Counted from the stretch's first letter, positions 2 through 35,198 are shown. The stretch is DNA of 35,198 nt from a virus (IMGVR_UViG_3300017913_001170:1-35198); one strand, 5' to 3'. Made by a program: numbers and translations. The notes: generated from the sequence alone by a model not told the origin.

Positions 2-577
2 AAGGAAAAACATCCAGATTGGGAGTACGAAGTGTTCACTGATCAGATGTTGCATGAACGCAAATGGATGAACCAACATCTGATCGAACACTACTACAAC
101 ACTAAGAAGTATGCAGGGGTGTCAGATCTTATTCGTTACGAACTACTTCTTGAACGTGGTGGATTCTTTCCAGAAGCGGACATGGAGTGTTTAGAAAATA
201 CAGATGAGTTGTGGGTAGAAGCACCACATAAAGCATATACTTGTTTTGAAAATGAATTGTACCGTCCAAACTTTGTACAACCAATTCTTGCGTGTAACCC
301 AGGCAACATGTTCGTTCGTATGTTGGTTGAGACTCTACACCAACTTCGTGCAGATCAACTTTCACCAGAACCGTTCAGATCTACAGGTAATCAGTTCCTA
401 AGTGGATTGATTCACGATAACCTATATCACTTGAAGATCTTCCCTTCACACTATTTTATTCCTCAATTCTATGTCCGTGAATCTAAACGTTATGATGGCG
501 ACGATAAGGTTTTCGCAGAACATCATTGGGGATCAACTGGAATGCCTTGGACGCAGCAGTACGGTTCTGCTACTTGA
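2..577 (+). CDS. Glycosyltransferase, GT32/Gly_transf_sug-like (5' partial)
   Basis: Frame is open from base 2 (KEKHPDWEYEVFTD...). YAGVSDLIRYELLLERGGFFPEAD matches the SDxxRxxxLxxxGGxxxDxD motif, with EAD at the DxD position. C-terminal HHWGST. Confidence 0.75.
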   Translation, partial: KEKHPDWEYEVFTDQMLHERKWMNQHLIEHYYNTKKYAGVSDLIRYELLLERGGFFPEADMECLENTDELWVEAPHKAYTCFENELYRPNFVQPILACNPGNMFVRMLVETLHQLRADQLSPEPFRSTGNQFLSGLIHDNLYHLKIFPSHYFIPQFYVRESKRYDGDDKVFAEHHWGSTGMPWTQQYGSAT

Positions 578-580
578 TGC

Positions 581-1330
581 ATGTACATATCACCAAAATA
601 TAAATTTATTTTTCTTAGAGTTCCGAAGACTGCTAGTACCAGTCTTTCGGAATTCTTTATTAAGAATATCGACGATCCAGACGCCATCTATACTGAAGTC
701 GATGACGCAAAAATTCAAGGAACCCTATCCGAAGAAAAACTTACGGAGATAAGAGGTGTCCACGAAAACTTCCATCCTTTCAAACATCTTCACTTAAACT
801 TGAAACAACTTGTCGACTATGACATCATCACTGATGAACAAGCAAGAACCTATCGTTCTGTCGCAGTTCTAAGAGATCCCATTGAAAGACAGAAGAGTTT
901 CTACTACTTCTTTAAACGTTGGGATAAAGATTTGAAGTCTAAACCTTACAGTCTCGAAGAATACAAATATATGGCTCCTCGTGGTTGGTTCGATGCGGAT
1001 AAAGCGACAGGTGAGGACAACTCAAAACTTCTTCAATCTGACTTTTTAAAATATGATGGTCAAATTCAAGGAGAGTATTGGTTGTACGAAACCTTGACAG
1101 ATAGACTGAAGTCTTTTATGGACGAGTTGGGTGTGGAGATTAAACATCCTTTACAAAATCATAAGAGTCAGTATAGAGTGGATAAGATCGACATCAAACA
1201 AAAGATTGAATTCGATCATGAAGCCTTGGGACCAATAAAAGATTATTTTGAAAACGACTTGAACCTTTACACAGTTATAAAGAAGAAATATTATGCAGAC
1301 ACAACGAGCTTACATACTTACAATCAATAA
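581..1330 (+). CDS. Sulfotransferase family protein (Sulfotransfer_2-like)
   Basis: N-terminal FIFLRVPKTASTS (5'-PSB PAPS loop) and VLRDPIERQKSFY (3'-PB motif). Confidence 0.75.
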   Translation: MYISPKYKFIFLRVPKTASTSLSEFFIKNIDDPDAIYTEVDDAKIQGTLSEEKLTEIRGVHENFHPFKHLHLNLKQLVDYDIITDEQARTYRSVAVLRDPIERQKSFYYFFKRWDKDLKSKPYSLEEYKYMAPRGWFDADKATGEDNSKLLQSDFLKYDGQIQGEYWLYETLTDRLKSFMDELGVEIKHPLQNHKSQYRVDKIDIKQKIEFDHEALGPIKDYFENDLNLYTVIKKKYYADTTSLHTYNQ

Positions 1331-2018
1331 ACCTATTTCTAAAGAGTACGCAAAACACACTGCAGAATCTTGTGATTCGGTTGGTCTTGATTGGGAATAC
1401 TTCGAAGGTTGGTGTGACATCCCAGGCGTGCTTGCGTGGGCGAGATCCGATATCAACTTGACGATCAATGAGGGTAGACCAATCAAACTTCCCCCTGCGG
1501 AGACATACTTTGAACCACGTGATGACCTACATGCAGGAGAGAAAGCAGAATGCGCTACTGTAGGTCATGCAGCGATCTGGAAAAAGATTGCAGAGGGTGA
1601 AGAGGATGTGGGTATTGTCCTTGAACACGATGCAATAATGTTGCAGAATATAGATATAGATATACCAGAGAACAGAATTGTGGTGTTGGGTTACAAACTA
1701 CCAGAACCTGAACGATATGATCATGTCACTGCAGGACCACCTGCGAGGTTCGTAGACATCCTTGGACATGAAGGTGCACATGCATATGCAATCACTAAAA
1801 AGACTGCACAGTTTATGATCGAAGAAATTGAAACGAAGGGTAGATTAGGATGCATAGATAATGCATACTTTATTCTAAATCAGAGACGAACTGCAGTACC
1901 TTTGTGTATTGCAGACCCTACACCAGCGATGGGGTGGTTGCGTGAATCAACTATTTGGGGTGGATCTGCGTACAGAAACTATCAATTTATCCCCTCGTTC
2001 GCAGAAAATTATAAATAA
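1293..2018 (+). CDS. Glycosyltransferase family 25-like
   Basis: AYILTI N-terminus, CATVGHAAIWKKI...IVLEHDA, and GAHAYAITKKTA motifs typical of GT25. Confidence 0.65.
   Translation: MQTQRAYILTINKPISKEYAKHTAESCDSVGLDWEYFEGWCDIPGVLAWARSDINLTINEGRPIKLPPAETYFEPRDDLHAGEKAECATVGHAAIWKKIAEGEEDVGIVLEHDAIMLQNIDIDIPENRIVVLGYKLPEPERYDHVTAGPPARFVDILGHEGAHAYAITKKTAQFMIEEIETKGRLGCIDNAYFILNQRRTAVPLCIADPTPAMGWLRESTIWGGSAYRNYQFIPSFAENYK
2010..2017 (+). promoter_or_regulatory. T4-type late promoter TATAAATA
   Basis: Exact gp55 consensus about 32 nt upstream of the ATG at 2050. Confidence 0.75.
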
Positions 2019-2049
2019 ACTCATAATCATATAAATTTAGAGCACAATC

Positions 2050-3069
2050 ATGGCTAGTCTTACAGAAGTAGAAAAAGATAAAAATAAAAAGAAGAGAAAT
2101 ATGGTCAAATATAAAGAGTTTGACCCATCTCAATACGTCGAATTGGAACCCACTCTGAAGGAAGCGAAGAGTGATACAGTTGTGTTCTCTTTCGGACGTA
2201 TGAACCCTGTAACGATTGGTCATGAGAAACTAGTCAACAAGGTGAAGTCAGTTGCTAAATCCAATAATGCAGACGCCCGTGTATACTTGTCCCACACCCA
2301 AAACAACAAGAAAGATCCACTGTCTTACAAAGACAAGTTTAAATTCGCAAGGAAAGCCTTCGGATCAGTCATTGTACAATCAAAAGCGAGACAAGTCTTC
2401 CAAATCGCCGCAGAACTCGAAAAAGCGGGATATAAAAAAATCATCATGGTCGTTGGATCTGATCGCATAAAAGAATTCCAAACAATTTTAGACAAATACA
2501 ACGGTAGAGACTATGACTTCGAGTCAATCAAGGTAGTCTCTGCAGGTGAACGTGATCCTGATGCAAAGGGTGTTGAAGGAATGTCTGGTACAAAACTTCG
2601 TGCGATTGCAAAAGCAGGTGACTTCGACGTATTTAAACAAGCCGCTGCATCTGGTCTGTCTGACAAAGATAAGATGGACATGATGAAACTTGTTCAGAAG
2701 AACCTCGCAGAAGAACTAGAAGAAGCGTTGACAAGACAACAACGTATGCAACGTTCACGCATGTTCAAGAGAATCAAACACAAAATCAAAAGAGGGCGTG
2801 AGAAAGCTTCAAAGAGACGTGCAACCTTAGACACTCTGAAGAAACGTGCACAGAAGGGTGCAAGAAACCTTATCAAAAAGAAATTGACTAAGGGTATGGA
2901 CTACAAGTCTATGTCATATGGTCAACGTCAAGCAATTGACAAACGTCTATCTAAGATTTCTCCTGCACGTCTAAAAGCGTTGTCTAAACGTCTGATCCCT
3001 CAGATCAAGAAACGTGAACAGGATCGCATCAAGAATAAAAATCGTCCTGCAGATCAAGGATCAAAATAA
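2050..3069 (+). CDS. Cytidylyltransferase-like (HIGH-superfamily) nucleotidyltransferase with a very basic C-terminal domain
   Basis: VVFSFGRMNPVTIGH (HIGH-like), MVVGSDR, SAGERDPD, GMSGTKLR (KMSKS-like). This family is typical of marine T4-like phages. Alternative start at 2101. Confidence 0.8.
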   Translation: MASLTEVEKDKNKKKRNMVKYKEFDPSQYVELEPTLKEAKSDTVVFSFGRMNPVTIGHEKLVNKVKSVAKSNNADARVYLSHTQNNKKDPLSYKDKFKFARKAFGSVIVQSKARQVFQIAAELEKAGYKKIIMVVGSDRIKEFQTILDKYNGRDYDFESIKVVSAGERDPDAKGVEGMSGTKLRAIAKAGDFDVFKQAAASGLSDKDKMDMMKLVQKNLAEELEEALTRQQRMQRSRMFKRIKHKIKRGREKASKRRATLDTLKKRAQKGARNLIKKKLTKGMDYKSMSYGQRQAIDKRLSKISPARLKALSKRLIPQIKKREQDRIKNKNRPADQGSK

Positions 3070-6000
3070 TGCGTTTTAAAAACTTTGTTGAGAAGACGAA
3101 AGTCACACAGGATAGAGACGTGGATGAGTTGCCAGGCACTCAACCATCAAAGTACTATTCTGGTGTAGACAAGGATGATAAAGAGAAACGTGCAAAACAG
3201 TTTGCACGACAGGCGAAGATGGACGACGATGATCCTCGTGCATACAAACCTGCGCCTGGCGACAAAGAGGCGAAGACTAAACCTTCCAAACACACCAAGA
3301 AGTTCCAACAAATGTATGGTGAACGTGAGTTGACTCCTGCAGAGAAGGACAAGATGAAAGAGTACGAGAAGAAGATCGATAAGAAAGACTTCATTGATCG
3401 TTACGGCGAAGAAGAAGGTGAACAGATCTATTACGCAACTATCACAAAGATGGCGAAGAAGAACGAAGCGGTATCCCCTGCACAACAAGCAGCGATTGCA
3501 ATCGCAAAGAAAAAGAAAGCAGGTAAGCCAGGATATGATTCTGAGGGTAAGAGTCTGAAAGAAGATTCTGAGAGAATGTTGAAACACGCTGCAGATGCAC
3601 TGCAACAGGTTTGGAACCGTAAAAAGAAAGATGCAAAACATGGTATCGAATATTACGCTGCACAGGTTGCACGTGGATACAGAGGTATCAACGCAAGAGA
3701 TCTAGTCAAAATGGTCCAAGAAGAAGTATCCCAAAAACAAATTGATGATCTAGAAAAGTTTGCAGACAGACTTCTTGCAAAGTTTAACATTGATGTGGAA
3801 TTCACAAAACACTTCAAAGATCGTATGAACGATAAACGCAACTCGCCTGAGATCAAGGTTGTGGAGTTGCAGAAACTATTCAAGAAGATCCAAAAGAACA
3901 AAGCAAAGAACATCCAAGGTAACGCAGGACTTGAAGCGGTACTGAAGGATCTTTCGTCGGATCTAAACCTTCCAGTAGTAATCAAACAAAAGGGTGACGA
4001 GATAGAACTCGTCAACAAAACTATCATGAGAAAACCTGATTTTAAAACAACTTCTAAGATCATCAAGTATGAAGAGTTCGTCAATATGGACGAAGCATCA
4101 CGTGCAGACATGAAAGTCCGTGCGAGACCACACATGATGTTGAAAGCGGGTAACGCAGGTGTTAAGTTTGATGGTCGTTTCAAAATGTATAAAAAGAAAC
4201 AAGTCCTTCGTGACGATGAAAAACCATTGAAAGAATCTATTGACGATATCACAGATCAGATTTATGATTTGATGGAATCTACCGAGATTGCAATCGCAGA
4301 GGATTCTGGTGAAGCATTAAAGAAGAAAGCGGAAAAGACAGGGATGCCTTTGAGTATCCTAAAGAAAGTGTTTGACCGTGGAGTTGCAGCATGGAGAACT
4401 GGACATAGACCAGGCACAACCGCAACACAATGGGGACTTGCACGTGTTAACTCATTCGTCACAAAGTCTAAAGGTACTTGGGGCGGTGCAGACCAAGATC
4501 TAGCCAAAAAGGTAAGGAACGAAGAAATGAACGAAGGTAAATCGTCAACAGGTTACGAACTGTATCACAAAGACTTCTCGTCTGCAATGCAACATGCATA
4601 CAAACATGCGAAAGACAAATTGAAGATTGAGATTGATCCAGAAGAGATTGATAACAAAGTTGCAACTGGGCCTCGTAAACCTTCTAAGGGTAAAACAAAC
4701 ACTTATAGACTGACAGATAAGTCTGGTAAGAAAGCAGTTCACATTCAGGTTGCAAACCTAGACAACAAAAGATACGAGTTAAACATGTATAAAGAGTCAA
4801 CAGATTTCGACGCAGTGTTCGAATCACTTGTAGAGGAAGATCTACAGGAAAATGTAAAACACAAGAAAGCAATCGAAAAAGCGCACAAGTTCTTTGTTAA
4901 GTCAAGTAAAGGTCGCAGTGATCGTATCCAAGAGAAGAACCGTTTCGCAGCGATGGAGATGTTGAAGAAAGAACTTGAAAAGATGGGTGCATCTGAGAGT
5001 GACATGATGAAGGCGTTCGGTGAACTAGACAAACACATTATGAAAGTAATGGATGAGTCGGTTGAACAGTTGGATGAACTAAGAGAACCATTCATCGTTT
5101 ATGATCCAGAGAACGGTAACGAAGTGGTTGGTACTGCATCTGATGAGAAAGGTGCAAAGGATATCATCTCTTCTGCAGGTCGTCCACCAATGAGCCATCC
5201 AAACCCAAAAGCGTTGAAGATTGCGAAGTCACGTAAGAAACAGCACATTGGTCGTAAACTGAATGCATCACATTGTTACGAGTCACTTGACGAAAACATG
5301 TCACGTGTTGCAAAAGAACTTGAAGCGTATGCACGTAAGAATGGTGGCATCGACAAGATGGACTTCATGAAAGCAGCGATGATGATGAAGAAAGGTCAGA
5401 CCAACCAACTGAAAAAGTTCGTTGACGATCTGGACACAGAACCACGTGAGAAGATTTTATCTCTAATGCAAAAGGATGCGGATCGTCGCAAAGAGTACAA
5501 AGCGGCTCAGAAGAAGATGCGTGAAGAAGTTGAACTAGAACAGATCGCAGAACTTTTGGAGAAGAAAGTATTCAAACCAGAAGAAGACGCTGCACTAATG
5601 AAACTGTACAACAAGGCAATGAAACAAATGCCTGGCAGCGCTGCACAGAAGAAAACCCTTGCAGACATCCAGAAACATCTTATGGACGTTTCTTCTAGAA
5701 TTCGCAATGAAGACGTAGAGATCGATCTTGAAGAAGGTGTAAACGATCCAGGCATCTTCAAGGCAGTGTTCCTTGCAGGTGGGCCAGGCAGTGGTAAGTC
5801 ATTCATGGTTGGTAAGACTGCGTTGACTACACTTGGTCTAAAACTGATTAACTCTGATCCTGCATTTGAGGCACAGTTGAAAAAGGTTGGTCTGAAAACA
5901 ACACCAGAAGATATCTTCACAGATAAAGGACAGGACGCACGTGCGAAAGCAAAACGTCTGACTGCAAAACAACAGGAACTTGCACTGAAAGGTCGCTTGG

Positions 6001-8710: not shown

Positions 8711-9028
8711 ATGGCACAATGGGGAAAGACAGATACACTGGCAGATGCTCCTGCGTATCTATCAACAGAGGCTGCACAGCCAAACAAATCTCATGACAAA
8801 GACAACGCAGTGTTCGTTGACTTGACAGAAGCAGGTGTTGCATCTAACCGTGCAAAGGGTCTGAAGACGCCAGGTTGGAACTTGTATCATACATATTCAA
8901 CTGCAGATGGACGTACTCGTCACATTACTGAGTCACTAGTACCAATGAAAGTTTCTGCTGCAGATGCAGGTGACTTGGGTGTAACAGGTGATACAACAGA
9001 CGAAGATCCAATCGTAGCAGACAGCTAA
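8711..9028 (+). CDS. Hypothetical virion protein
   Basis: Strong SD and late promoter. MAQWGKTD...GLKTPGWNLYHTY resembles structural proteins of marine T4-like phages. Confidence 0.55.
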   Translation: MAQWGKTDTLADAPAYLSTEAAQPNKSHDKDNAVFVDLTEAGVASNRAKGLKTPGWNLYHTYSTADGRTRHITESLVPMKVSAADAGDLGVTGDTTDEDPIVADS

Positions 9029-10703: not shown

Positions 10704-11204
10704 ATGTTCACATCTATTAAAATTGCAATAGTTCTAACCGTCCTCGCTACAGGTGGGGTCGGTTATATGTACGTACAGAAGTTACAATCGGATCTTGAAA
10801 CTGCACGTGAAAACGTTGCAAAGATGGAAGTCGCAGTACGTACTGCAGAAGCAAGTATCGCAACTCTACAAGAAGATGCAGCAAAGATGCAAGAACTAAA
10901 CTTGCAACTGTCTGCAGATCTTCAAAAAGCTGAGGCATATGGTGATGATCTCAGAAGTAAACTCCAACGACATAATTTGACGGCACTGGCACTCAAAGCG
11001 CCGGGTCAACTTGAAGGAAAGATGAATGGTGCAACTGCAAAACTATGGCGTGAATTGGAACAAGACACTGGCGGTGCTGGGGATTCCCCTCTTCCTAGTT
11101 GGTTGCAGCGCCCTGACACCAGAACCGAAAGTAGTGACGGTGACGGAAATCCAGAAGACAACAGTTCCGATAGTAGCACGCCCGAAACCGATCAGCCTAA
11201 CTGA
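10704..11204 (+). CDS. i-spanin (Rz-like)
   Basis: N-terminal TM followed by a long coiled coil. Overlaps a lipoprotein gene in another frame. Confidence 0.75.
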   Translation: MFTSIKIAIVLTVLATGGVGYMYVQKLQSDLETARENVAKMEVAVRTAEASIATLQEDAAKMQELNLQLSADLQKAEAYGDDLRSKLQRHNLTALALKAPGQLEGKMNGATAKLWRELEQDTGGAGDSPLPSWLQRPDTRTESSDGDGNPEDNSSDSSTPETDQPN

Positions 11205-12036: not shown

Positions 12037-13044
12037 ATGGTTGCGTTCAACGACTTGCACTATGCCCAGATGTTGTCTGGGCGTCTCGAAAACTTTCGCA
12101 TTCGAAACACAAATCCCTACAAAATAAATTTTAGATGTCCGATCTGCGGTGACTCACAGAAGTCTCGCACGAAGTCACGTGGATGGTTGTTAGAGAAAGA
12201 GAATAGGTTCCTCTTCTACTGTCATAATTGTGGCGCCTCTCATGGGTTTCAGAACTTCCTAAAGGTAGTAGATCCTCTACTCTACAATGACTACATTGCA
12301 GACAAATTTATCAAAAAAGACAAAAAAGAAGAGTTCCAGTTCAAAGATGATACTGGAAAGAAACTGTCTGTACTAAAAGATAATCCGTTAAAGAAAATAA
12401 AAAAAGTATCGCAACTTTCCCACACTCATGCGATCAAAAGATATATAAGTAGTAGACAGATTCCGGCACGTCACCACTATCGTCTTTATTACGTCAAGGC
12501 ATTCAAAAGCTGGATTAACGGAATCATCCCTGACAAATTTGAAAACTTAGATAAGGACGAACCACGCCTAGTAATACCTTTCCTCGACAAGAATAAAAAA
12601 GTCTTCGGTGTTTCTGCCCGTGGTTTCAATCCCAATGGTGTTCGATATCTTACCATCATGTTTGATGATGTACCTAAAGTCTTTGGACTTGATACTGTAG
12701 ATTTCGAACGTCCATATCATATTGTAGAGGGCGCAATTGACAGTATGTTTCTTTCTAACGCAGTCGCAATGGCGGGTGCGGATGGAAACGTATCCGCATT
12801 TGAAAATATGGATAATGCAGTTTTTGTTTTTGATGCAGAACCTCGTAACAAAGAAATCCATCAACGGATGGAACGAGTGATCAGACAGGGGTACAAAATC
12901 TGTATCTGGCCCGACAACATGAAGGGTAAAGACATCAACGAGATGGTTCTGAATGGTGTTACAGATGTCGAACAAGTGATTAAAGATAATACGTATAAAG
13001 GTTTGGAAGCAAACCTCAGACTACAAAGGTGGAGAAAAACATGA
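12037..13044 (+). CDS. 61: DNA primase (T4 gp61-like)
   Basis: NFRCPICGDS...YCHNCG zinc finger; TOPRIM VEGAIDSMF; KDINEMV. Confidence 0.95.
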   Translation: MVAFNDLHYAQMLSGRLENFRIRNTNPYKINFRCPICGDSQKSRTKSRGWLLEKENRFLFYCHNCGASHGFQNFLKVVDPLLYNDYIADKFIKKDKKEEFQFKDDTGKKLSVLKDNPLKKIKKVSQLSHTHAIKRYISSRQIPARHHYRLYYVKAFKSWINGIIPDKFENLDKDEPRLVIPFLDKNKKVFGVSARGFNPNGVRYLTIMFDDVPKVFGLDTVDFERPYHIVEGAIDSMFLSNAVAMAGADGNVSAFENMDNAVFVFDAEPRNKEIHQRMERVIRQGYKICIWPDNMKGKDINEMVLNGVTDVEQVIKDNTYKGLEANLRLQRWRKT

Positions 13045-13736
13045 AGACACGACTGATCAGTTACAGTCAACCCCCAAAAGATACCTTTATTGGTATGGAA
13101 GATGTGCAAGATCTCATTGCGTACTGTGCAAGAGTATCAAACCCATCTAATCAATTCAACTCAGAGACCTCTGAAAAACTTCTCAATTATCTCGCAAAAC
13201 ATAAACACTGGTCGCCATTTGAAATGGTGTCTGCATGTATTGAAGTAGAGACTACACGTGATATTGCACGTCAACTTTTACGTCATCGTTCGTTTTCATT
13301 CCAAGAGTTCTCACAACGTTATGCAGATCCAGTAAAAGAATTAGAATTTGTGAAACGTGAGTGTCGTCTTCAAGATCATAAGAACCGTCAAAACTCTATT
13401 GAGATTGAAAATGACCCTGCACTTATTCAAGATCAAAAGAACTTAGATCTGATTTCAGAATGGAATCGTCGTCAGACTGGTATAATTGAAATGGTCAAAA
13501 AACACTACGAATGGGCGATTGAAAATAATATCGCTAAAGAACAGGCACGTGCAATCCTTCCAGAAGGTTTGACAGTGTCACGTCTATATGTGAATGGTAC
13601 TATTCGTTCTTGGATTCATTATGTTGAACTTCGAAGTGCAAACGGTACACAAAAAGAACACATGGAACTAGCAAGAGATATCGGCAAAGTTATTGCTGAG
13701 GTATTTCCTCTCGCAAACAAATATATTAACAAATAG
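13041..13736 (+). CDS. thyX: Flavin-dependent thymidylate synthase
   Basis: RHRSFSFQEFSQRY ThyX motif and HWSPFE. ATGA overlap with primase. Confidence 0.95.
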   Translation: MKTRLISYSQPPKDTFIGMEDVQDLIAYCARVSNPSNQFNSETSEKLLNYLAKHKHWSPFEMVSACIEVETTRDIARQLLRHRSFSFQEFSQRYADPVKELEFVKRECRLQDHKNRQNSIEIENDPALIQDQKNLDLISEWNRRQTGIIEMVKKHYEWAIENNIAKEQARAILPEGLTVSRLYVNGTIRSWIHYVELRSANGTQKEHMELARDIGKVIAEVFPLANKYINK

Positions 13737-13745
13737 GAACATCTT

Positions 13746-16043
13746 ATGACGCAAGTAACAAAGCGGGATGGATCTAAGGAAGAACTCAACATCGAAAAAT
13801 TGCACAAAGTGGTATTCCATGCGTGTGATGATATTACTGGTGTAAGTCCAAGTGAAGTTGAAATTAAAAGTCAGATCCAATTCTATAACGGAATAACAAC
13901 TACTGAAATACAAGAAACACTGATCAAGGCTGCGGCGGATCTTATTGCTGAAGAGACGCCTAACTATCAATACGTTGGTGGTCGTCTAATCAATTATCAA
14001 TTGCGAAAAGAAGTGTATGGTGGTTATGAACCGTGCACCGTAAAAGAACTAGTTGAACGTAATATTGAGAAGGGTTTCTATGATCCAGAACTACTCGAAC
14101 AATATACAGATGAAGAGTGGGAAAAAATAGATGGTTTTGTTAACCACGGGCGTGATGAGAATCTTACTTATGTTGCGATGGAACAACTACGTGGTAAGTA
14201 CCTCGTACAAAACCGTGTGACTGGTGAAATCTTCGAAACACCTCAGATGTGTTATGTTCTAATTGCTGCAACGTTGTTTCAGAACTACCCAAATGACACA
14301 CGTCTACAATATGTAAAGGATTACTACAATGCTATCAGTCAACATGATATTAGTTTGCCTACTCCTGTTATGGCTGGGGTACGCACTCCACAGAGGCAGT
14401 TCTCCAGCTGTGTCCTCATCGAAACTGATGACAGTTTGGACAGTATTAATGCTACTTCTAGCAGTATCGTAAAGTATGTAAGTCAGAAAGCGGGTATTGG
14501 TATCGGTGGTGGTAACATCCGTGCGATTGGTTCTCCAATCCGTAAGGGTGACGCATTCCATACAGGTATCATTCCTTTCTACAAACACTTTCAGTCTGCA
14601 ACTAAGTCTTGTTCGCAAGGTGGTGTACGTGGTGGCGCAGCGACTATTTACTATCCGATCTGGCACCTTGAAGTCGAAGATATGATTGTGTTGAAGAACA
14701 ACAAAGGCACAGAAGAGAACCGTGTACGTCACATGGACTACGGTGTTCAGTTTAACAAGTTGATGTACGAACGTCTGATTACTGGTGGTGATATTACTCT
14801 ATTCTCTCCCTCAGACGTGCCTGGACTGTATGATGCATTCTTTGCTGATCAAGATAAGTTCAAGGAACTATATGAGACTGCAGAACGCAACACACGTCTG
14901 CGCAAGAAGACTATCAAGGCGATTGATCTGTTCTCTATGTTTATGGAAGAACGTAAGAACACAGGTCGTATCTATCTACAGAATGTAGACAATGCAAATG
15001 ATCATGGTTCGTTCCTACCAGAAGTTGCGCCTATTCGTCAATCGAATCTTTGTGCAGAAATTGACTTGCCAACAAAACCATTAAATGATATAAATGACCC
15101 TGAAGGAGAAATCAGTCTTTGTACTCTATCTGCAATCAACTGGGGTAACGTGAGGTCACCAGAAGACTTCGAACGTGCGTGTACTCTTGCGGTTCGTGGT
15201 TTGGATGCGTTGTTGTCATATCAGAATTATCCCATTTTGGCTGCACGTCTATCGACTGAGAAACGTAGACCACTAGGTGTAGGTATCATCAACTTCGCAT
15301 ATTGGATGGCGAAACATGATCTATCTTATCAGGATGTTACACCAGAAGGTCTGGAATTGATTGACGAATATGCAGAAGCATGGTCTTACTATTTGATCAA
15401 AGCGTCTGCAGATCTTGCAGTAGAACAAGGTTCAATTAGTGGTGCGGATGAGACTAAGTATGGGCATGGTATCACGCCTAACCAAACATACAAGAAAGAT
15501 CTTGATGAACTAGTTCCTCATAAAGAACGTATGGATTGGGAAGGACTACGTGCACAGTTGAAAGAGACTGGTATCCGTAACTCAACACTTATGGCGTTAA
15601 TGCCTTCAGAAACTAGTGCACAGGTTGCGAATGCGACAAATGGTATTGAACCACCTCGTTCACTAATTTCAGTAAAACAATCAAAACACGGAGTTTTGAA
15701 ACAAGTTGTACCTGAGTACAAACGTTTGAAGAATAAATATGATCTCCTGTGGGATCAACAGACACCAGTCGGTTATCTCAAAATCATGGCAGTTCTACAG
15801 AAATATATCGATCAGGGTATCTCAGTCAATACGTCTTATAATCCTAAGTTCTATGAGGATGAAAAGATTCCAATGAGTGAGATGTTACAACACCTGTTGA
15901 TGTTCTACAAGTACGGCGGGAAACAACTATATTATTTTAATACCTATGATGGTCAAGGTGAAGTAGACGTTAGTAAACTGATGGAAGAACCCCTTGAACA
16001 AACAGATTTAGACGAATCAGCATGTGAAAGTTGCACAATTTAG
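13746..16043 (+). CDS. nrdA: Ribonucleotide reductase class Ia, alpha subunit
   Basis: N-terminal ATP cone VTKRDG, FSSCVL, QSNLCAEI, LYY, C-terminal CESC. No intein-sized insertion. Confidence 0.97.
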   Translation: MTQVTKRDGSKEELNIEKLHKVVFHACDDITGVSPSEVEIKSQIQFYNGITTTEIQETLIKAAADLIAEETPNYQYVGGRLINYQLRKEVYGGYEPCTVKELVERNIEKGFYDPELLEQYTDEEWEKIDGFVNHGRDENLTYVAMEQLRGKYLVQNRVTGEIFETPQMCYVLIAATLFQNYPNDTRLQYVKDYYNAISQHDISLPTPVMAGVRTPQRQFSSCVLIETDDSLDSINATSSSIVKYVSQKAGIGIGGGNIRAIGSPIRKGDAFHTGIIPFYKHFQSATKSCSQGGVRGGAATIYYPIWHLEVEDMIVLKNNKGTEENRVRHMDYGVQFNKLMYERLITGGDITLFSPSDVPGLYDAFFADQDKFKELYETAERNTRLRKKTIKAIDLFSMFMEERKNTGRIYLQNVDNANDHGSFLPEVAPIRQSNLCAEIDLPTKPLNDINDPEGEISLCTLSAINWGNVRSPEDFERACTLAVRGLDALLSYQNYPILAARLSTEKRRPLGVGIINFAYWMAKHDLSYQDVTPEGLELIDEYAEAWSYYLIKASADLAVEQGSISGADETKYGHGITPNQTYKKDLDELVPHKERMDWEGLRAQLKETGIRNSTLMALMPSETSAQVANATNGIEPPRSLISVKQSKHGVLKQVVPEYKRLKNKYDLLWDQQTPVGYLKIMAVLQKYIDQGISVNTSYNPKFYEDEKIPMSEMLQHLLMFYKYGGKQLYYFNTYDGQGEVDVSKLMEEPLEQTDLDESACESCTI

Positions 16044-17433: not shown

Positions 17434-18645
17434 ATGAGTATGATTTCTAAAGATAATTTTGATGAAGTAATTTCTTCTTACAAAAAATCAGGTAAATATA
17501 GAGTCTTCAATGACATCCTTAGAGAGCGGGGGAAATTTCCCCGCTCAATTTGGTACGGAAAATACGCACCAAAGAATATTGTAAACTGGTGTTCCAACGA
17601 TTATCTTGGCATGGGTCAGAATGAATATGTGATCAATGCAATGCACACTGCACTAGATCAAACTGGTGCGGGTTCTGGTGGAACAAGAAACATTGGTGGT
17701 ACATCACACTACCACGTGACACTTGAAAGTGTTCTTGCACAACTTCACCAAAAAGAATCTGCGTTACTATTCTCAAGCGCATATGTTGCAAACGAATGGT
17801 CACTCATTGCACTCTCTCGTATCATTCCAAATATCTGTTTTATTTCTGATAACAAAAACCATGCATCGCTTATTATGGGTATGAAACATAGCCGTGCGGA
17901 TAAGATGATATTTCCCCATAATGATATGGACGAATTAGAAATTGCGTTAGAAACTGCAGTGAGAGAAAATAAAGTTCCATGCATCGTGTTTGAGTCTGTA
18001 TATTCTATGGACGGTGATGTAGGGAAAATTGAAGAAATTTGTGATCTCGCAGATAAATATAACGCAATCACTTATATTGATGAAGTTCATGCAGTTGGTC
18101 TTTATGGTGAGACAGGTGCGGGTTATTGTGAGAAATTAGGTTTAACAGATAGGATAACAATAATCAATGGGACACTCGGTAAAGCATTCGGAGTTCAGGG
18201 AGGTTACATTGCTGGTGATAGTGTTGTCGTTGACGCTATTCGGAGCGTGGCTTCTGGGTTTATTTTCACAACCTCAATCTCCCCAGTCATCTGTGCAGGA
18301 GCTATCGCCTCCATCAAATATATCAGTGACAACCCTTCCATCCATAGAAGACATCAGGAAAGGGCATCATTTCTAAAGAAACTTTTAGATGATGCAAACA
18401 TTCCTGTTCATCCAAATGCATGTACACATATTGTACCAGTAATGGTAAATGACGCCTTTAAGTGTAAAGAAGCAAGTGACCGTCTCTTGAACGAGTTCGG
18501 TATCTACATCCAACCAATCAATAGTCCAACAGTCGATGTTGGAACTGAAAGACTACGAATCGCACCAACGCCATATCACGATGACGTGATGATGGTAGAG
18601 TTGGTGGAAGCACTAAAGAAAGTTTTAAATGTCAAAGATTTATAA
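17434..18645 (+). CDS. hemA: 5-aminolevulinate synthase (PLP-dependent)
   Basis: [57 protein letters not shown] (PLP lysine), [15 protein letters not shown]. Confidence 0.92.
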
Positions 18646-24908: not shown

Positions 24909-25534
24909 TAGTTATATTTAATGGACCGCCTGGTTCTGGTAAGGACGAGGCTGCAGCGTGGTTGGGTAGACGTGGGTTTGCTCATTTAAGTTTCAAACAT
25001 CACTTGTTCCGTGAAACAATGAAAGAGTTTGATGTTGATACTGTTTGGTTCATGGATGGTTTCAATAATCGTTCTATGAAAGAACTACCAGAAGAAAAAC
25101 TGCGTGGTATGTCTCGCCGACAGGCCATGATCTACACATCAGAAGATGTTATCAAACCAAAATATGGTAAGTCATACTTTGGTGATCAAGTTGCATCCCA
25201 AGTTGAAGGTGACGAAAAGTATGTTATCAGTGATGGCGGTTTCGTAGAAGAGATCGAACCTTTGATCGACAAAGTCGGCGCAGAGAATATTCTGTTGGTT
25301 CAACTTGTCCGTGAAGGATGTAGTTATCGTTCTGATTCACGTCGATATTTCAACGGCCAACTTATCGAATCTTTTAGTGCAGGATATGAGTCTGATATAG
25401 AAGATCAGTATATTCTAGAAACTGAACTTCCTATCCCCACATATCGCATATATAATAATGGGACGTTAAAAGAATTTCATGACGCCCTAGAAAACATATA
25501 TGAGTTAGTAATCGGTAGAGAGTTAATAGACTAA
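24905..25534 (+). CDS. Deoxynucleoside monophosphate kinase (T4 gp1-like)
   Basis: FNGPPGSGKD Walker A, VISDGGFVEE, SDSRRY, IYNNGTL. Confidence 0.75.
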   Translation: MIVIFNGPPGSGKDEAAAWLGRRGFAHLSFKHHLFRETMKEFDVDTVWFMDGFNNRSMKELPEEKLRGMSRRQAMIYTSEDVIKPKYGKSYFGDQVASQVEGDEKYVISDGGFVEEIEPLIDKVGAENILLVQLVREGCSYRSDSRRYFNGQLIESFSAGYESDIEDQYILETELPIPTYRIYNNGTLKEFHDALENIYELVIGRELID

Positions 25535-25550: not shown

Positions 25551-26303
25551 ATGAGTAAACTTGTTGGTATGCCTGTACCAAACGTCATCAATCTTAAAGA
25601 GTGTGAAGATCGTCGCATTTATATGCAGAACGAATTGTCTAAGTATAACGTCGAACCAATCTTCCATCAATACGATAGATACGAAGACTCAGATGTTCGT
25701 GCATTCTGTGATGATATGATCGAACCTTATTGGATCGATAAAGGCACCACAACTTCCCACCTTCTCACAATCAAGAAATGGTTAGAAACGACAGACGAAG
25801 AGATTGGTCTGTTCATGGAAGATGATGTTGACTTCACCACTGTCCAACACTGGAACTTTACCTTCGAAGAGTTTGTGGAACGGATGGGTACAAAGTGGGG
25901 CGCATTACAGTTAGGACTTGTACATGAAAGTCATCCTGTGATGGTTCCACGTAAACGTGAACAACAGGATCACGGTCTACAGTGTTACATGTTACGTAGA
26001 AAGTATGCAACCAAACTAGTGAAGTTCTACTTCGATCAAGGCGATGATACAATACACTATAGGATGCCAGTGGGTGCAATGTTATCTTTAGAGAACGCAG
26101 TCTTGTGGGGGTTTGGAAGAATCTTCACCTTTCCTCTTTTCAACCACAACGTAACACAGTTTAATTCTGCAAACATTTTTCAAAAGGGATCTCAGGTGGA
26201 TGCGTCTGTAAGATCATATCACACTATTCGTGCGTGGTGGGAAAATGAAGGCAGAAATATGAGTTTAGATGAAATCTTCAACAACAGTAAAATAGATTAT
26301 TAA
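25551..26303 (+). CDS. Glycosyltransferase family 25-like
   Basis: VINLKECEDRR, SHLLTIKKW, FMEDDVDF, LQLG. Confidence 0.75.
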   Translation: MSKLVGMPVPNVINLKECEDRRIYMQNELSKYNVEPIFHQYDRYEDSDVRAFCDDMIEPYWIDKGTTTSHLLTIKKWLETTDEEIGLFMEDDVDFTTVQHWNFTFEEFVERMGTKWGALQLGLVHESHPVMVPRKREQQDHGLQCYMLRRKYATKLVKFYFDQGDDTIHYRMPVGAMLSLENAVLWGFGRIFTFPLFNHNVTQFNSANIFQKGSQVDASVRSYHTIRAWWENEGRNMSLDEIFNNSKIDY

Positions 26304-26315: not shown

Positions 26316-27278
26316 ATGAGTTGTCTATACAAAGGTCAAGTTATCGAATCTGAGGTATCCGCTAATTCATTTGGTGGTACAGAAATGATGCGTGAACGTG
26401 TAATCAAAAATGTGGATAAACAATGGTTGGATCAAGTAGCGATTCACTTCTCACGTCCACGACAGTTGTTTGAGGATGTCCCAAACGTCCTTTACTGTCA
26501 TGATCTTGCAGAAGATCCAGAGAATAATGTTCTTGCGAATGGAGGGTGGGAAAAGTTCGATCACTTTGTATTCGTATCTGCATGGCAACGTGATCAGTTC
26601 ATCACACGTTTCAATATCCCCTATTCAAAGACAACAGTAATCTACAATGCAGTGGAGACTCAATATGATCCAGTTAATAAAGACGTTGATACAATTCGTT
26701 TTATTTACCATACTACTCCCCATCGTGGTCTTGAGCTCCTTGTTCCTATCTTTGATGCTCTTTGTAATTCTTTTGATAACATTCACTTGGATGTTTTTTC
26801 TTCCTTCGGTATCTACGGATGGGAACAAAGGGACGAACCATACCGTGATCTTTTTAAGAAGATAGAAGATCATCCTCACATGACTTATCATGGTTGGCAA
26901 CCCAACGATGTCGTACAAGAAGCATTGAAGAAGTCTCACATCTTCCTCTATCCGAACATCTGGAAAGAGACATCGTGTATTGCAATGATTGAAGCAATCA
27001 AAAACCAAGTTATTGTTATTCACCCGAACTATGGTGCATTGACAGAGACGGCAGCGAACGCAACAATCGTGTATGAGTACACCGAAGACAAGACACAACA
27101 TGCGAACTATGCATTTAGTATTGCTGCACAGGTTCTTAATGTACAGAAAGAGAATCCGAACTACTTCAATCGATTCACCTATTCGGATCGTTACAACCTT
27201 GCACGTAATAGTATCGAGTCTTTCACAAATGTGTGGAATCAAGTTCTTTCACTAATCGTTCAGGAGTCCCAAAAATAA
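26316..27278 (+). CDS. GT-B (GT4-like) glycosyltransferase
   Basis: GGTE, VFVSAWQ, YHTTPHRGLELL, YPNIWKETSCIAMIEA, GALTET. Confidence 0.85.
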   Translation: MSCLYKGQVIESEVSANSFGGTEMMRERVIKNVDKQWLDQVAIHFSRPRQLFEDVPNVLYCHDLAEDPENNVLANGGWEKFDHFVFVSAWQRDQFITRFNIPYSKTTVIYNAVETQYDPVNKDVDTIRFIYHTTPHRGLELLVPIFDALCNSFDNIHLDVFSSFGIYGWEQRDEPYRDLFKKIEDHPHMTYHGWQPNDVVQEALKKSHIFLYPNIWKETSCIAMIEAIKNQVIVIHPNYGALTETAANATIVYEYTEDKTQHANYAFSIAAQVLNVQKENPNYFNRFTYSDRYNLARNSIESFTNVWNQVLSLIVQESQK

Positions 27279-28203: not shown

Positions 28204-28204
28204 A

Positions 28205-29795: not shown

Positions 29796-29825
29796 TATGT
29801 AAACAATATTGGATAGGACTATAAG

Positions 29826-30077: not shown

Positions 30078-30081
30078 AATT

Positions 30082-30375: not shown

Positions 30376-30376
30376 A

Positions 30377-30742
30377 ATGTCTAACCCAGATTATGCAGCG
30401 TTACTCGCCGCAATTGCGGCAGAAACAGATCCTGTTTTAAAACAAGCATTAATCGATCAGGCATATCGTTTCACAGAAACACCTACTGATGACGAGATAG
30501 AATTATTTGAATTTGTTGACTATGATTATATTGAACCAAACCCTGGCATCTTCTCAGATACGAGTGCATTTTACTTCACGCCAGGGTATGTCGATGTTGA
30601 CTATGTACGAGGTGCTACAGCTTCGTATGTAGATATATATTATGTAGATTCAGGATATTTCGAAGAGGGGTCGATCCCTTCCGAACCAACTTATAGCTCA
30701 TATGTAGGTGTATACTACAACAACGCTGGGGAAAGTACTTAA
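30377..30742 (+). CDS. Acidic Tyr-rich hypothetical virion protein
   Basis: Repeated YVD/DYV/GY motifs; TAATG coupling to the fibre gene. Confidence 0.6.
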   Translation: MSNPDYAALLAAIAAETDPVLKQALIDQAYRFTETPTDDEIELFEFVDYDYIEPNPGIFSDTSAFYFTPGYVDVDYVRGATASYVDIYYVDSGYFEEGSIPSEPTYSSYVGVYYNNAGEST

Positions 30743-33700
30743 TGGCTATTACTAAACGTATTGATAAAGGGTCGTCCCTTACGTACCAAGAGATGGACGA
30801 CAACATAGATGCAATCGCACCACGTACAAGTGCGACTGGATCTGTTCAAATTCCTGCAGGGACAACCGCACAACGTGACGGTTCTGCATCTAATGGATAT
30901 CTAAGATATAACACACAACTTAACCAGTTCGAAGGTTACATCAACGGTGGTTGGGGCGGACTTGGCGGTGGTGGTGGATCTGGTGATCCAAACCAAAATG
31001 CGTACAGTAACTTTGCGGTATCTGGTCAGACAACTATCGCTGCAGATCAGGCGACAGATACAATCAACTTCGCTGCGGGTTCGAACATTACCCTCACCAC
31101 AAATGCAACGACTGATACTCTTACAATCGCTGCAAACTTTACCCAAGACTTTGCGTTCTCTTCACTGACAGGTAAACCTACGACTGTCTCAGGTTACGGT
31201 ATCACAGATGCACAGGCACTTCTTGTATCTGGCACGAACATCAAAACCATCAATAATACATCTATATTAGGTAGTGGTAATATAACGGTATCTGCGACTG
31301 CGGATTGGAATACTCTTCAAAATAAACCAACCACAATCTCAGGGTTTGGTATCACAGATGCATTTGATGGTGCATGGTCTTCTTTGACTGGAACCCCAAC
31401 CACATTATCTGGTTATGGTATTACAGACGGACAAGCAATTCTAGTTTCGGGTACATCGATTAAAACAATCAACGGTGCGTCTGTACTGGGGTCTGGCGAC
31501 TTGACTGTTACTGGTTCGTATGGCGATTCAGATGTTAGTGCACACCTTAATACTTCTGGTGCAAACACAAATGAGTTTCTGCGTTGGAACGGTATCGACT
31601 TCGAGTGGGCATCAGTATCTGGTGGTGGCGGATCTGAAACAGATCCAGTTGTAGGCGCAATCGATGGTATCGTAAAAGCAGATGGTGCGGGTAATATTTC
31701 TGCTGCTGAAGCAGGAACTGACTACTCCACATTTGATGGTGACTGGAACAGTCTATCAAGTACACCTACGACTCTTTCTGGTGCAGGGATTACTGCATCA
31801 TTGTTAGACTTGACGAATCAAGGTGGCACAACAATTAATGACGGTAGTTCAGGTACTTTCTTGACTACAGATGGTAACGGTAACTTCTCGTTTGCTGCAG
31901 TATCTGGTGGCGGCGGATCTCTTGCATTCACAGACTTGACAGACACCCCTGTAAACTATAACGGTGCGGGTAGTCAACTTATCGGTGTTAATGCAGGTGC
32001 AACTGGTCTAACTTTCTACACTCAATCTGCAGGTGCGGAATCTAATGACTTGTCTCAGGTTGTGACTTGGACAACTGTACCAGACGCATATATTTCTAAC
32101 ACGAGTGTGGTTCAACACCAAGCGGATCTTCGTATCACCGAAAGTCAGATCACTGACTTGCAGAACTATATTGTAAATGAAACAGATCCAATCTTCTCTG
32201 CGTCTGCAGTTGCGAACGTTGTTGCAGATGCAACAGGTAGTGGTTTCCTTAGAAACCAAGGTGGCGAATGGTTCTACGATAACAACGTATACACAACATC
32301 GACTGCAGCAGAAACAGATCCGATCTTTAATGCACACACAACCTCAGACATTATTAACGGAACTGGTCTACTTGGTAACGGTGGTTCTGCGAACACTTGG
32401 TACTACGATACAAACACATATATCCAAGGTTCAGATGTTCCAGACAATGAAACCGATCCAGTCTTTAGTGCCCACACTACTGCAAACATTAATAACGGAT
32501 CTGGTTTCCTTAAACAAGACGGTGCGGGTAACTGGTTCTACGATGCGAATGACTATATTACTGCAGCGGGTTCTGAAACAGATCCTGTCTTCACTGCACA
32601 TACGACTTACAACATTGCGAATGGTACAGGGTATCTGAAGAATGATGGTGGCGGTACTTGGACTTATGAGTCCAACACTTTCTTAACTACAGAAGAAGAT
32701 CCAATATTCGATGCACATACAGTATCAGACATTGTCGATGGGGAAGGGTTCCTAAGACAAGATAGTGCAAACAACTGGTATTGGGATGCAAACACTTATA
32801 TCACTGCGAACGATATCCCAGCGTCAACTGCAACACTAGACGATGTTGTCGGTAACGGTAACCAGACGACGAATAGTGCTGAGTTTGGTGGATTGACAGT
32901 TGACGGAAACAATGTTATTGTTGAAGGTTCTAACAATGCATTGTTGACAAATGGCGCTGCATATATCACGTTGACTGATCTGAGTGCATCAGGTGATTTG
33001 ACTTACGACAATGAAACTGGTGTGTTCACTGCAAACCTTCAATCCACTGGAATTGTTTTGACAGATTTGTCGGTGGAATATAACGCAGCGGGTACTGCAA
33101 ACTTAACATACAACGACACCACTGGGGTGTTCACATATACTCCGCCAGACCTTTCTACCTATTTGACATCAGGCGATCTTCCTGCAGAAACAGATCCTGT
33201 CTTTACTGCATGGACTGGTTCGAGTATCACAGATGGTACAGGTTTCTTGCGCAATGACGGTTCTGGTAACTGGTCATATGATGCAAATACTTTCCTAGAT
33301 GATGCTGGTGTCCAGACAATCATTAATGGTCACTTGAATACAGGTACTGCAGGTAACAACCAAGTTCTTTCTTGGGATGCGGAAAGTGAAGATTTCTTCT
33401 GGGCAGCATCAGGAGGGGGTGGTGGCGGAATCGCATTCACGGATCTTTCTGTTACCGTCAACCCCGCATCTGGCAGCGGAGATCTTACATATGATGATTT
33501 GGGTAGTTTTTCATATACCCCACCAGATATTTCTCAGGTATCAGGTAACTTCACAGTCGGTGACAACCTTAACATTCAGGGTTCTACTTCAGATGGTGGT
33601 ATAATTACACTAAACTCTGCACAGACAGGATCTCCAACACCGTCAAGTACAAACTGGTCATATCTGACAGTGGAAAGAGGTACACAACCTAATGTTCACA

Positions 33701-35198
33701 TTCGTTGGAACGAGGGTAATGATGTTTGGGAATTTACTAATAATGGTTCAACCTACACTGAACTAGGTGGCGGTACACCTACTTTAGATGAGATATTAAG
33801 TGCATCTGCAACTTCCAACGAATCAAATGATGTTTTAAAATTATACAGAACCAATGATGGTAATGTTGGTACTGGTACTCTAAGATTCGAATCTCGTGAT
33901 ACGACACCAAATTCAGATCAGTCCATGGGTGATATTACATTCTATATGGATAACGATACAAATAGTGGAACAAATACTCTTGGTGAATATGCACGTATTT
34001 CTGCAAAAGGACAACAAGTTAGATCTGGTACACCAGCTAATAACACTGGTTACATAGACTTCCAAACTTCAACAAAAGATGGTTTGGAAAGTTTGATGAA
34101 GGTTGGGTTCGATCCATATTCATCAACAAATACCTCGGCTGGTGCAAATATTGGTACGGTGATGACCAACAATGCGTATGTCAATGGTGACTTACATGTT
34201 TACGAAGAGGTCGATACTCCCGGCGATCTTTCGTCGGACGCATTTCTCCAGATGTATCTTACTGCGTATGATCCCAACACAAATACCACGCAAAGACGTG
34301 TTGAGATTAATCACCAAAACGGTGCGATGCGTATCATTCACAGAAACCGTAACGACATATCTGAGTATGGTCAGTTGACAATTCCACATTCGGAACCAAC
34401 TCCACTGCGCATATATTACTCAGATACTGGGAATCAATACGATATTGTTTCAGATCACAACTTCGATACCAAGTTCAACACTAGAATGTTGGATGATGAT
34501 AATCTTGTAAGATTTAACTCATATGCGAACACTAAGGTTATCACCACAGGCAACGATTTCGGTGACTTCAACGGTGGGTCGTCAGACAATGCACAAATAG
34601 TCCCAGGCAATGAGGGTTATGGTGCACTTGCATTCTTTACTTGGGCGAACAATGCTAATGGTGATGCAAGTACACACAGATATATTCCATATGGACACAA
34701 TGAAGAAGTTCCACATGGCATGGGTATTCTTCGTGACTCTGGTCAGCACCAAACAGGTGCAGCGAGATGGGATCCATTTGGTGGACCAGACTTCCGTATC
34801 AGTCTAGACAATAGTGATACGGATGCGAGTTATTTCTTTGGTTCCACAGCGACATCAAATGACCCACACCCAGTAAATATGATCATGACCAATGCAGACT
34901 TCACACCCGATAATGGTGATAAGATTGGTCGTATTAAGTTTAAAGGTGGTGAATCGACTTTCTCACAGTTTGAAGAGTATGCACTGATCACTGTGACAAT
35001 GCAAGACACTACTGTGGATGCATATGATGCTAGAATGGCGTTGTATGTAAAAAATAATGGTGGGACTGGTACTGATGCAAACATTGGCGTGGTACTAGAT
35101 GGCAAACAAGCGCTCATAAAAAGCAGAGCCAACCATCATTACTTTGGTGGGTTCCCACTCTCTCAGGTTGATAACGACACCGTTCCGACTGACAATTA
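30742..35198 (+). CDS. Very large tail fibre/virion structural protein (3' partial, >1480 aa; absent from ORF track)
   Basis: Starts MAITKRIDKGSSLTYQEMDDN...IPAGTTAQR...GYLRYNT...FEGY. Frame 1 stays open to the window end. G/T/S/D/N-rich with KPTTxxGYGITD, ETDP and YTPPD repeats. Confidence 0.88.
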   Translation, partial: MAITKRIDKGSSLTYQEMDDNIDAIAPRTSATGSVQIPAGTTAQRDGSASNGYLRYNTQLNQFEGYINGGWGGLGGGGGSGDPNQNAYSNFAVSGQTTIAADQATDTINFAAGSNITLTTNATTDTLTIAANFTQDFAFSSLTGKPTTVSGYGITDAQALLVSGTNIKTINNTSILGSGNITVSATADWNTLQNKPTTISGFGITDAFDGAWSSLTGTPTTLSGYGITDGQAILVSGTSIKTINGASVLGSGDLTVTGSYGDSDVSAHLNTSGANTNEFLRWNGIDFEWASVSGGGGSETDPVVGAIDGIVKADGAGNISAAEAGTDYSTFDGDWNSLSSTPTTLSGAGITASLLDLTNQGGTTINDGSSGTFLTTDGNGNFSFAAVSGGGGSLAFTDLTDTPVNYNGAGSQLIGVNAGATGLTFYTQSAGAESNDLSQVVTWTTVPDAYISNTSVVQHQADLRITESQITDLQNYIVNETDPIFSASAVANVVADATGSGFLRNQGGEWFYDNNVYTTSTAAETDPIFNAHTTSDIINGTGLLGNGGSANTWYYDTNTYIQGSDVPDNETDPVFSAHTTANINNGSGFLKQDGAGNWFYDANDYITAAGSETDPVFTAHTTYNIANGTGYLKNDGGGTWTYESNTFLTTEEDPIFDAHTVSDIVDGEGFLRQDSANNWYWDANTYITANDIPASTATLDDVVGNGNQTTNSAEFGGLTVDGNNVIVEGSNNALLTNGAAYITLTDLSASGDLTYDNETGVFTANLQSTGIVLTDLSVEYNAAGTANLTYNDTTGVFTYTPPDLSTYLTSGDLPAETDPVFTAWTGSSITDGTGFLRNDGSGNWSYDANTFLDDAGVQTIINGHLNTGTAGNNQVLSWDAESEDFFWAASGGGGGGIAFTDLSVTVNPASGSGDLTYDDLGSFSYTPPDISQVSGNFTVGDNLNIQGSTSDGGIITLNSAQTGSPTPSSTNWSYLTVERGTQPNVHIRWNEGNDVWEFTNNGSTYTELGGGTPTLDEILSASATSNESNDVLKLYRTNDGNVGTGTLRFESRDTTPNSDQSMGDITFYMDNDTNSGTNTLGEYARISAKGQQVRSGTPANNTGYIDFQTSTKDGLESLMKVGFDPYSSTNTSAGANIGTVMTNNAYVNGDLHVYEEVDTPGDLSSDAFLQMYLTAYDPNTNTTQRRVEINHQNGAMRIIHRNRNDISEYGQLTIPHSEPTPLRIYYSDTGNQYDIVSDHNFDTKFNTRMLDDDNLVRFNSYANTKVITTGNDFGDFNGGSSDNAQIVPGNEGYGALAFFTWANNANGDASTHRYIPYGHNEEVPHGMGILRDSGQHQTGAARWDPFGGPDFRISLDNSDTDASYFFGSTATSNDPHPVNMIMTNADFTPDNGDKIGRIKFKGGESTFSQFEEYALITVTMQDTTVDAYDARMALYVKNNGGTGTDANIGVVLDGKQALIKSRANHHYFGGFPLSQVDNDTVPTDN
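32179..32820 (+). repeat. Five tandem ~40-46-aa ETDP repeats in the fibre
   Basis: Units start at 32179, 32311, 32449, 32575 and 32692. A further copy lies at 33187 and a partial one at 31636. Confidence 0.85.

Follow-up and report, generated by a model that had tools for sequence, protein, structure and literature searches.

A restriction-site footprint at GC(C/T) in a marine T4-like phage lineage, with a DUF4338/DruA-family GNAT as candidate modifier

A GC(C/T) target motif and an anti-restriction role are already known for two phage systems, the C5-methyltransferase/TET modules and CmoX. Burke et al. 2021 (PMC8256090) describe marine phage C5-methyltransferases that are specific for GpC[C/T] and accompanied by TET enzymes and glycosyltransferases, and Yang et al. 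(PMC12783734) report that CmoX acts at GC and that CmoX, CmoA and CmoY of Synechococcus phage S-B43 together give 5-glycylcarboxymethyl-C. A different chemistry is that of Mom of phage Mu, which, according to PMC13219725, transfers glycine from Gly-tRNA onto adenine N6 in SAS. PMC7824862 predicts further DNA-acylating GNATs in phages, and PMC10853773 describes DUF4338 as a GNAT. In the genomes of marine myoviruses, Hiraoka et al. (PMC8919816) report m4C-type signals at RGCY, CCNGG and GGWCC, most of the methyltransferases having no motif assigned to them. Here we analyse the viral stretch IMGVR_UViG_3300017913_001170:1-35198 (35,198 nucleotides in full, hereafter the window), a fragment of a marine T4-like phage covering about a sixth of a genome, in which CCNGG and CCGG sites persist only in particular flanks, and we consider a DUF4338/DruA-family GNAT gene of its relatives as the candidate source of the protective mark. 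In the open-licence literature we found no paper that links DUF4338/DruA to DNA modification or describes flank-rescued site avoidance, and no DruA substrate was reported in the papers found.

The original prediction listed 25 CCWGG and 2 CCSGG sites and held that all of them overlap a GC dinucleotide. Our recount returned identical sites at identical coordinates, and 27/27 have a G before and/or a C after the core:

299..34607: footprint, all 27 CCNGG sites overlapping GCC on at least one strand (site count)
CCNGG positions 1-14 of 27: 299, 1422, 3132, 3255, 3528, 4410, 5631, 5748, 5784, 6468, 7412, 7821, 8870, 9628
CCNGG positions 15-27 of 27: 9975, 10363, 11001, 14820, 18918, 19194, 20923, 24929, 30325, 30542, 30581, 34219, 34603
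8869..8874, plus strand: one-sided site in CGCC context, likewise at 24929, 30581 and 11001; that at 14820 is TGCC
12463..12467, plus strand: CCGG with a 3′ C, which reads GCCGG on the minus strand and is not part of a CCNGG, a second spared specificity

The claim that CCGG obeys the same flank rule was also borne out (3/3, at 11001, 12463 and 34220). Against the proposed codon-shuffled null, for which we used 1000 synonymous-codon shuffles covering 94% of the window, unflanked CCNGG numbered 0 where 34.1±4.5 were expected (shuffle minimum 22), and flanked CCNGG numbered 27, twice the shuffle mean of 13.5±2.9 (maximum 22). Unflanked CCGG was likewise absent (0 versus 18.4 expected, shuffle minimum 6). 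The footprint is thus confirmed as a real feature of the window. The statement that Pro-Gly is nearly always CCW-GGC was too strong, at about 80%, although the preference behind it is marked: GGC makes up 19/24 of the CCW-GGN Pro-Gly pairs versus 83/722 of the Gly codons in the window. Beyond what the original prediction noted, CGCG is wholly absent from the window (0 versus 54 expected), as is GCGCG counted over both strands (0 versus 18.7 expected), and GCT and GCC are depleted (observed/expected 0.47 and 0.77) whereas GCA and GCG are not (1.42 and 1.20).

The flank rule is lineage-specific. Among 80 NrdA-related loci it appeared in four, with CCWGG flanked in 49/49 cases, and the remaining 76 loci pooled gave 318/748; three of the four have a primase 90% identical to that of the window and hence are not independent. 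The rule holds throughout G001, a 65.8-kb relative about 80% identical to the window, and also in G012, G013 and G014; another relative, L001, is 90-91% identical to the window, and L269, to which we return below, comes from the same sample as L001. When metagenomes were scanned for long contigs belonging to the same species as the window, only three 90% relatives emerged, and no close cultured phage was found. Two further relatives, G009 (117.8 kb) and G011 (119.2 kb), have overlaps of 100% identity with each other at either end, over about 25 kb at one end and over 72 nt in a syntenic glycosyltransferase gene at the other, and so form a closed genome of 211.6 kb. Where the two were compared, this genome is 71-79% identical to the window at the nucleotide level.

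In this closed relative a 5′ G flanks CCWGG in 115/115 sites, CCSGG in 6/6, CCGG in 22/22, CCATGG in 7/7, CCTAGG in 2/2, CCTNAGG in 8/8, CYCGRG in 4/4 and CCCGT in 29/30, and CGCG, CGATCG, GGWCC, GGTACC and GACGTC all number 0. Sites starting with CC or CT can be spared, those starting with CG are never spared, and sites unable to overlap GC are gone. Because CC- and CT-starting sites are spared by a 5′ G and CG-starting ones never are, the protective motif, as read from the footprint, is GC(C/T), or GCY. This keeps the GC context of the original prediction and narrows it, since not every GpC protects; an all-GpC motif is ruled out by the absence of GCGCG and GCGATCG. An RGCY or purine-C (RC) motif was rejected as well, the base before G in one-sided sites being C in 35, T in 19, A in 14 and G in 5; A-preceded CCNGG occurs in the window only with a 3′ C. 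Several unrelated cores are spared, and the putative host nucleases would have more than one specificity, which refines the single EcoRII/ScrFI-like CCNGG nuclease that had been proposed. About half of the CCNGG sites (73/148) have the flank on a single side, so that modification of one strand would be enough to prevent cleavage. GCY covers only 4-5% of cytosines, so protection would need both the modification and the purging of all other sites.

The same pattern occurs in Methylophilales phage Melnitz, in which genes for DNA polymerase, a C5-methyltransferase, TET and a kinase stand in a row and flanked sites make up 38/38 CCWGG, 7/7 CCGG and 6/6 CTGCAG. We take Melnitz as a positive control for the footprint logic, the specificity of its own enzyme being assumed by analogy. 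Its locus (MZ577097.1:4010-8090, L423) holds hhaIM, an unannotated TET/JBP gene (PF12851, E 3.6e-11), a 427-aa protein of unknown function and a P-loop kinase, an order equal to the clade II arrangement of Burke et al. Together with the lineage specificity and the several unrelated sites, Melnitz upholds the general claim of restriction avoidance combined with modification in a GC context. Could the rule arise with no modification at all, through avoidance of longer sites (HCCNGGD and the like) or a codon-pair habit? CGCG, GGTACC and GACGTC are avoided outright, which would suit such an origin. It would, however, require that each of at least five different cores shun all nine non-G/non-C flank pairs with the same exception each time, the synonymous-codon shuffle null (not a codon-pair null) fails to reproduce the rule, and a phage with a known GpC-type module has the same pattern; we regard it as very improbable.

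The original prediction left the mark as methylated or hypermodified. In the window no methyltransferase or TET was found (PHROGs over 47 open reading frames (ORFs), Pfam over 30 ORFs). In the closed relative no C5, N4/N6 or Dam enzyme was detected, a result that applies to this relative, the window's own genome being incomplete. PF00145 and PF01555 had no match there; our own C5-methyltransferase profile (57 phage proteins) gave a best E of 0.21 over 3,343 closed-genome frames, with controls at 1e-155 and better; tblastn with the Melnitz C5-methyltransferase, CmoX, CmoY, CmoA and the S-RSM4 Dam found nothing below E 0.1 in the closed genome; and tblastn with the Melnitz TET had no match at E≤1. 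PF12851 (TET/JBP) was empty in the closed genome, with a weak control, and tblastn for CmoX, CmoA and CmoY with the G005 and S-B43 proteins over the closed genome and the window gave a best E of 0.81. As regards 7-deazaguanine (DpdA) systems, which have a DNA transglycosylase and a preQ0 pathway, PF01702 was empty in G009/G011 and three cyanophages, although the model may miss DpdA, and QueC-like scores were weak and below the cut-off. Many closed-genome frames have no Pfam family. With no methyltransferase or TET detected in the closed relative, methylation is unlikely as the chemistry.

The lineage resembles the C5-methyltransferase/TET phages in its GpC[C/T] motif, in its setting among marine T4-like phages, in a gene beside the DNA polymerase and in a footprint identical to that of Melnitz, and differs from them in that neither a C5-methyltransferase nor a TET was detected in the closed relative and PF00145 was not found in 13 cultured carriers of the GNAT gene. 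With CmoX/A/Y it shares the context, GC-context cytosine hypermodification in marine T4-like phages there and the footprint context here (S-B43 itself is depleted in GpC, at 0.66, and has 3/3 CCGG flanked), whereas CmoX is a C5-methyltransferase homologue and none of the three genes was found in the closed genome. The unassembled part of the window's own genome might still encode CmoX or the known GpC[C/T] module of C5-methyltransferase and TET, the latter as in Melnitz. The identity of motif and footprint with Melnitz (PMC8256090) and the small share of the genome that the window covers would accommodate this, as would an NrdA relative (G005) with a CmoY-CmoX-CmoA-like cluster in the same interval. 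Yet the closed relative, at 71-79% identity, follows the rule without C5-methyltransferase/TET or CmoX genes, closer relatives have the GNAT near the DNA polymerase, and G005 itself does not follow the rule (CCWGG 12/28), so that we consider such a module quite improbable. That cluster (L086/G005, L141:9214-11949) lies in the gp46-gp45 interval, and relatives of the G005 Cmo-like gene occur in 214 viral stretches. CmoX was also rejected as the modifier across 80 CmoX-like loci, among which no locus with at least three CCWGG sites had every site flanked.

The candidate that we favour is a DUF4338/DruA-family GNAT. The closed relative (G009) encodes it as a 368-aa protein three genes after the DNA polymerase, and the same GNAT lies near the DNA polymerase in relatives closer to the window (G014/L269 and L236). 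The protein of L269 (P0001) matches PF14236 with E 1.8e-7 and 31 bits versus a gathering cut-off of 27, and matches this family only; PF25680 (Mom) had no match in G009, G011, G014 or S-PRM1, and a sequence search of the PDB with the L269 protein returned nothing. The gene matches 31 cultured records. In S-SSM7, S-PRM1, S-CAM9 and S-SM2 it separates two clamp-loader genes, gp44 and gp62, a slot that holds dam in S-RSM4, and in HTVC008M it directly follows the DNA polymerase, which is the slot of the Melnitz C5-methyltransferase. Conserved residues of the protein include S119, R127 and T192-S194. An AlphaFold model from a 47-row alignment reached a predicted local distance difference test score (pLDDT) of 90, and all 50 listed structural matches were of GNAT type, with Mu Mom (8bv8) ranked first at Z 10.0, a root-mean-square deviation of 3.9, 170 aligned residues and 13% identity, other GNATs being tied within 1 Z. 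The predicted fold is that of a GNAT with a helical insertion, Mom-like. An earlier model of the L269 protein was poor (pLDDT 63), and Foldseek gave no match at E≤0.001 with either model. Family members are very abundant in marine phages, with 6,412 protein clusters of the DUF4338 type among 7,998 candidates scored.

The modelled GNAT fold with its helical insertion is one likeness to Mom; the post-replicative, sequence-specific anti-restriction modification proposed here would be another. The differences lie in the target and the family: Mom modifies adenine in SAS, whereas the footprint here is GCY and includes CCGG, which has no SAS adenine, and the GNAT here scores as DruA PF14236 and not as PF25680. 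Going by the footprint, an SAS adenine does not fit as the target, because GCCGG and both GCCWGG orientations are spared. The Mom family features a Gly-tRNA donor and catalytic R111, S124, D149 and R151. A tRNA-Gly(TCC) gene is present in G009, S-PRM1 and S-SSM7 and does not adjoin the DUF4338 gene. With DruA of Druantia the likeness is the Pfam match above the cut-off, and the difference is that here the gene is a stand-alone phage gene in a replisome cluster.

Carriage of the gene and the footprint are associated in cultured phages. In 13 carriers and 11 non-carriers, PF00145 was found in 0/13 and 3/11, respectively, and the G-flank rule in 7/13 carriers versus 0/8 non-carriers without a C5-methyltransferase (Fisher p=0.015, ignoring kinship); GpC depletion was stronger in carriers than in non-carriers (p=0.0013, likewise ignoring kinship). 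Among the carriers, S-SSM7 had flanks at CCWGG 117/123, CTGCAG 16/16 and CCATGG 12/14, and CCGG was flanked in S-PRM1 (28/28), S-CAM9 (37/37), DSL-LC02 (8/8), Sf-FS3 (7/7), S-T4 (4/4) and S-SCSM2R (3/3). Of the eight non-carriers without a C5-methyltransferase, seven lacked CCGG completely (68-99 expected each), and the eighth, ACG-2014i, had 16/48 flanked. Another non-carrier, G008 (L130-L138), has its CCGG almost solely inside CCSGG (34/35), CGCG 0, GCAGC 1 versus 114 expected, and no PF00145 or PF01555 match.

A gene-content screen, which covered G008 and the fetched parts of the non-carriers, started from 33 frames common to the closed relative, S-PRM1, S-CAM9 and S-SSM7. Two of them were missing from G008 and the non-carriers, namely the GNAT and the window's GT25-like glycosyltransferase:

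25551..26303, plus strand: GT25-like glycosyltransferase, phrog_2835, which tends to accompany the DUF4338 gene in cultured phages and is a candidate rival or partner

The GCY mark might be made by this glycosyltransferase, by itself or together with the GNAT, or by a phage or host enzyme that escaped recognition. Apart from the GNAT, only the glycosyltransferase was shortlisted, and the many frames without a Pfam family leave room for further enzymes. On the other hand, its cultured homologues are only 27-31% identical versus 43-53% for the GNAT, HTVC008M, in which the CCGG rule holds partially, lacks it, and its gene is not near the replisome cluster. Of enzymes that might supply a hydroxymethyl handle none was found, ThyX being present and TET not; a host enzyme would need the same rule in cyanophages and in what is likely an alphaproteobacterial phage. 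We therefore consider another enzyme unlikely, though less so than the other alternatives.

With moderate confidence we propose that sites are purged genome-wide save those overlapping GC(C/T), and that the mark is likely made by the phage DUF4338/DruA GNAT, with its Mom-like predicted fold, probably by acylating cytosine. Hosts would carry several type II nucleases (for CCNGG, CCGG, CCATGG and others), and the replisome-linked GNAT would acylate a base in GCY after replication. A site overlapping the mark would escape cutting, one modified strand being enough, and all unprotected sites would be selected away; the window's own genome would carry the GNAT gene. As for the modified base, we give cytosine N4 about an even chance. 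The other candidate is the G of an RGC on the opposite strand, and the flank data are equally compatible with the C of GCY and this G. Like the adenine N6 that Mom modifies, cytosine N4 is a major-groove exocyclic amine. It is favoured for that reason and because cytosine-modifying enzymes encoded in the same slot have an identical motif. N4-acylated cytosine is labile.

Several observations weigh against assigning the mark to this GNAT. The gene is not on the 35-kb window and was found only in relatives, and no contig joins it to the window in the runs holding the window. In the two runs best holding the window (0.91 and 0.67 of words), short contigs do cover the L269 gene, one of them over 931 letters with 21 differences. 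The sole direct sign for GCT in the window's clade is the spared CTCGAG (2/2), and CTGCAG (44/187) and CTAG (30/275) are simply not avoided. The cultured sample was hand-picked, with 80-141 kb of each genome counted, and six of the seven rule-showing carriers form one supported protein-tree clade, the window's relatives forming another. The rule is absent in 4/13 carriers (flanked CCGG 14/49 in Sf-CH8, 15/38 in S-SM2, 75/229 in S-B68 and 4/38 in S-SRM01); three of these four belong to a separate, shorter subfamily, and CCGG is less purged in them. S-CREM1 has one site only, HTVC008M follows the rule partially (CCGG 35/45), and S-SSM7 has no CCGG, not even GCCGG, and in addition a separate true Mom-family gene (PF25680, E 2e-33, NC_015287.1:216832-217392). 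Low-GC carriers lack the CCWGG rule (4/23 in L252, 5/17 in L276), and the GT25-like glycosyltransferase accompanies the GNAT in 10/13 carriers and occurs in 1/11 non-carriers. Low-GC carriers also have G-flank rules of their own, with CTNAG 9/9 in L276 and CCWGG 12/16 pooled over L260, L262 and L267.

To the motif and role already described for C5-methyltransferase/TET and CmoX, the present data add a closed genome that bears the footprint and has no detectable methyltransferase, as well as the association of GNAT and footprint in cultured phages. We suggest, tentatively and with rather less than even confidence, that a very abundant gene family of marine phages encodes Mom-like GNATs which acylate or aminoacylate cytosine N4 within GC(C/T). 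The product would be a new base, and these enzymes would take the place of the GpC C5-methyltransferase/TET module without any methyltransferase. A Mom-like acyltransferase as modifier would mean a modified DNA base not yet described; DNA GNAT chemistry would reach beyond Mom's adenine, and marine phages would have arrived at GC(C/T) protection with two or more unrelated classes of enzyme encoded in one and the same slot. Flank-rescue footprints would then allow modifier specificity to be read from genome sequence alone. An oddity of composition is here turned into a testable enzyme-substrate prediction that proposes for a widespread unannotated phage gene both a function and a target motif. 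Cultured S-PRM1, S-CAM9, S-SSM7 and HTVC008M are available material for nucleoside analysis. DUF4338 paralogues may mark other triplets: Pelagibacter phage HTVC008M (L299, L323-L327) has two of them, no PF00145 or PF01555 match, and a second rule in which GATC (81/81) and GANTC (42/42) are preceded by G or followed by C (139.9 of 147.3 kb counted).

The remaining gene content of the window is T4-like, with primase, ThyX, NrdAB, PhoH, an RNase H-type exonuclease, spanins and glycosyltransferases (PHROGs, Pfam):

12037..16043, plus strand: gp61-type primase, ThyX and NrdA, T4-like markers used for finding relatives
17434..18645, plus strand: PLP (pyridoxal phosphate) aminotransferase, best listed cellular relatives in Alphaproteobacteria, a host hint
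26316..27278, plus strand: GT4-like glycosyltransferase, phrog_2170, PF00534, whose homologue holds the 72-nt overlap closing G009/G011

Among the matches listed, the best cellular relatives of the aminotransferase share 52-57% identity with it, and nearly all bear the names of Alphaproteobacteria, so that a host in this group is likely. The sequencing runs holding the window are mostly from seawater. The aminotransferase, which we take to be a 5-aminolevulinate synthase, is one of the tetrapyrrole genes of the window's clade, and the relative G001 has a heme oxygenase and a ferredoxin-dependent bilin reductase (L091:11428-12628). A glycosyltransferase/sulfotransferase cluster lies at the window start (2-2018), and APS (adenosine 5′-phosphosulfate)-kinase-like and nucleotidyltransferase genes occur in G009 (L123:1674-10870). 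At the other end, an open-ended frame of about 1,500 codons (30742-35198), outside the closed-ORF list, appears tail-fibre-like by our own reading.

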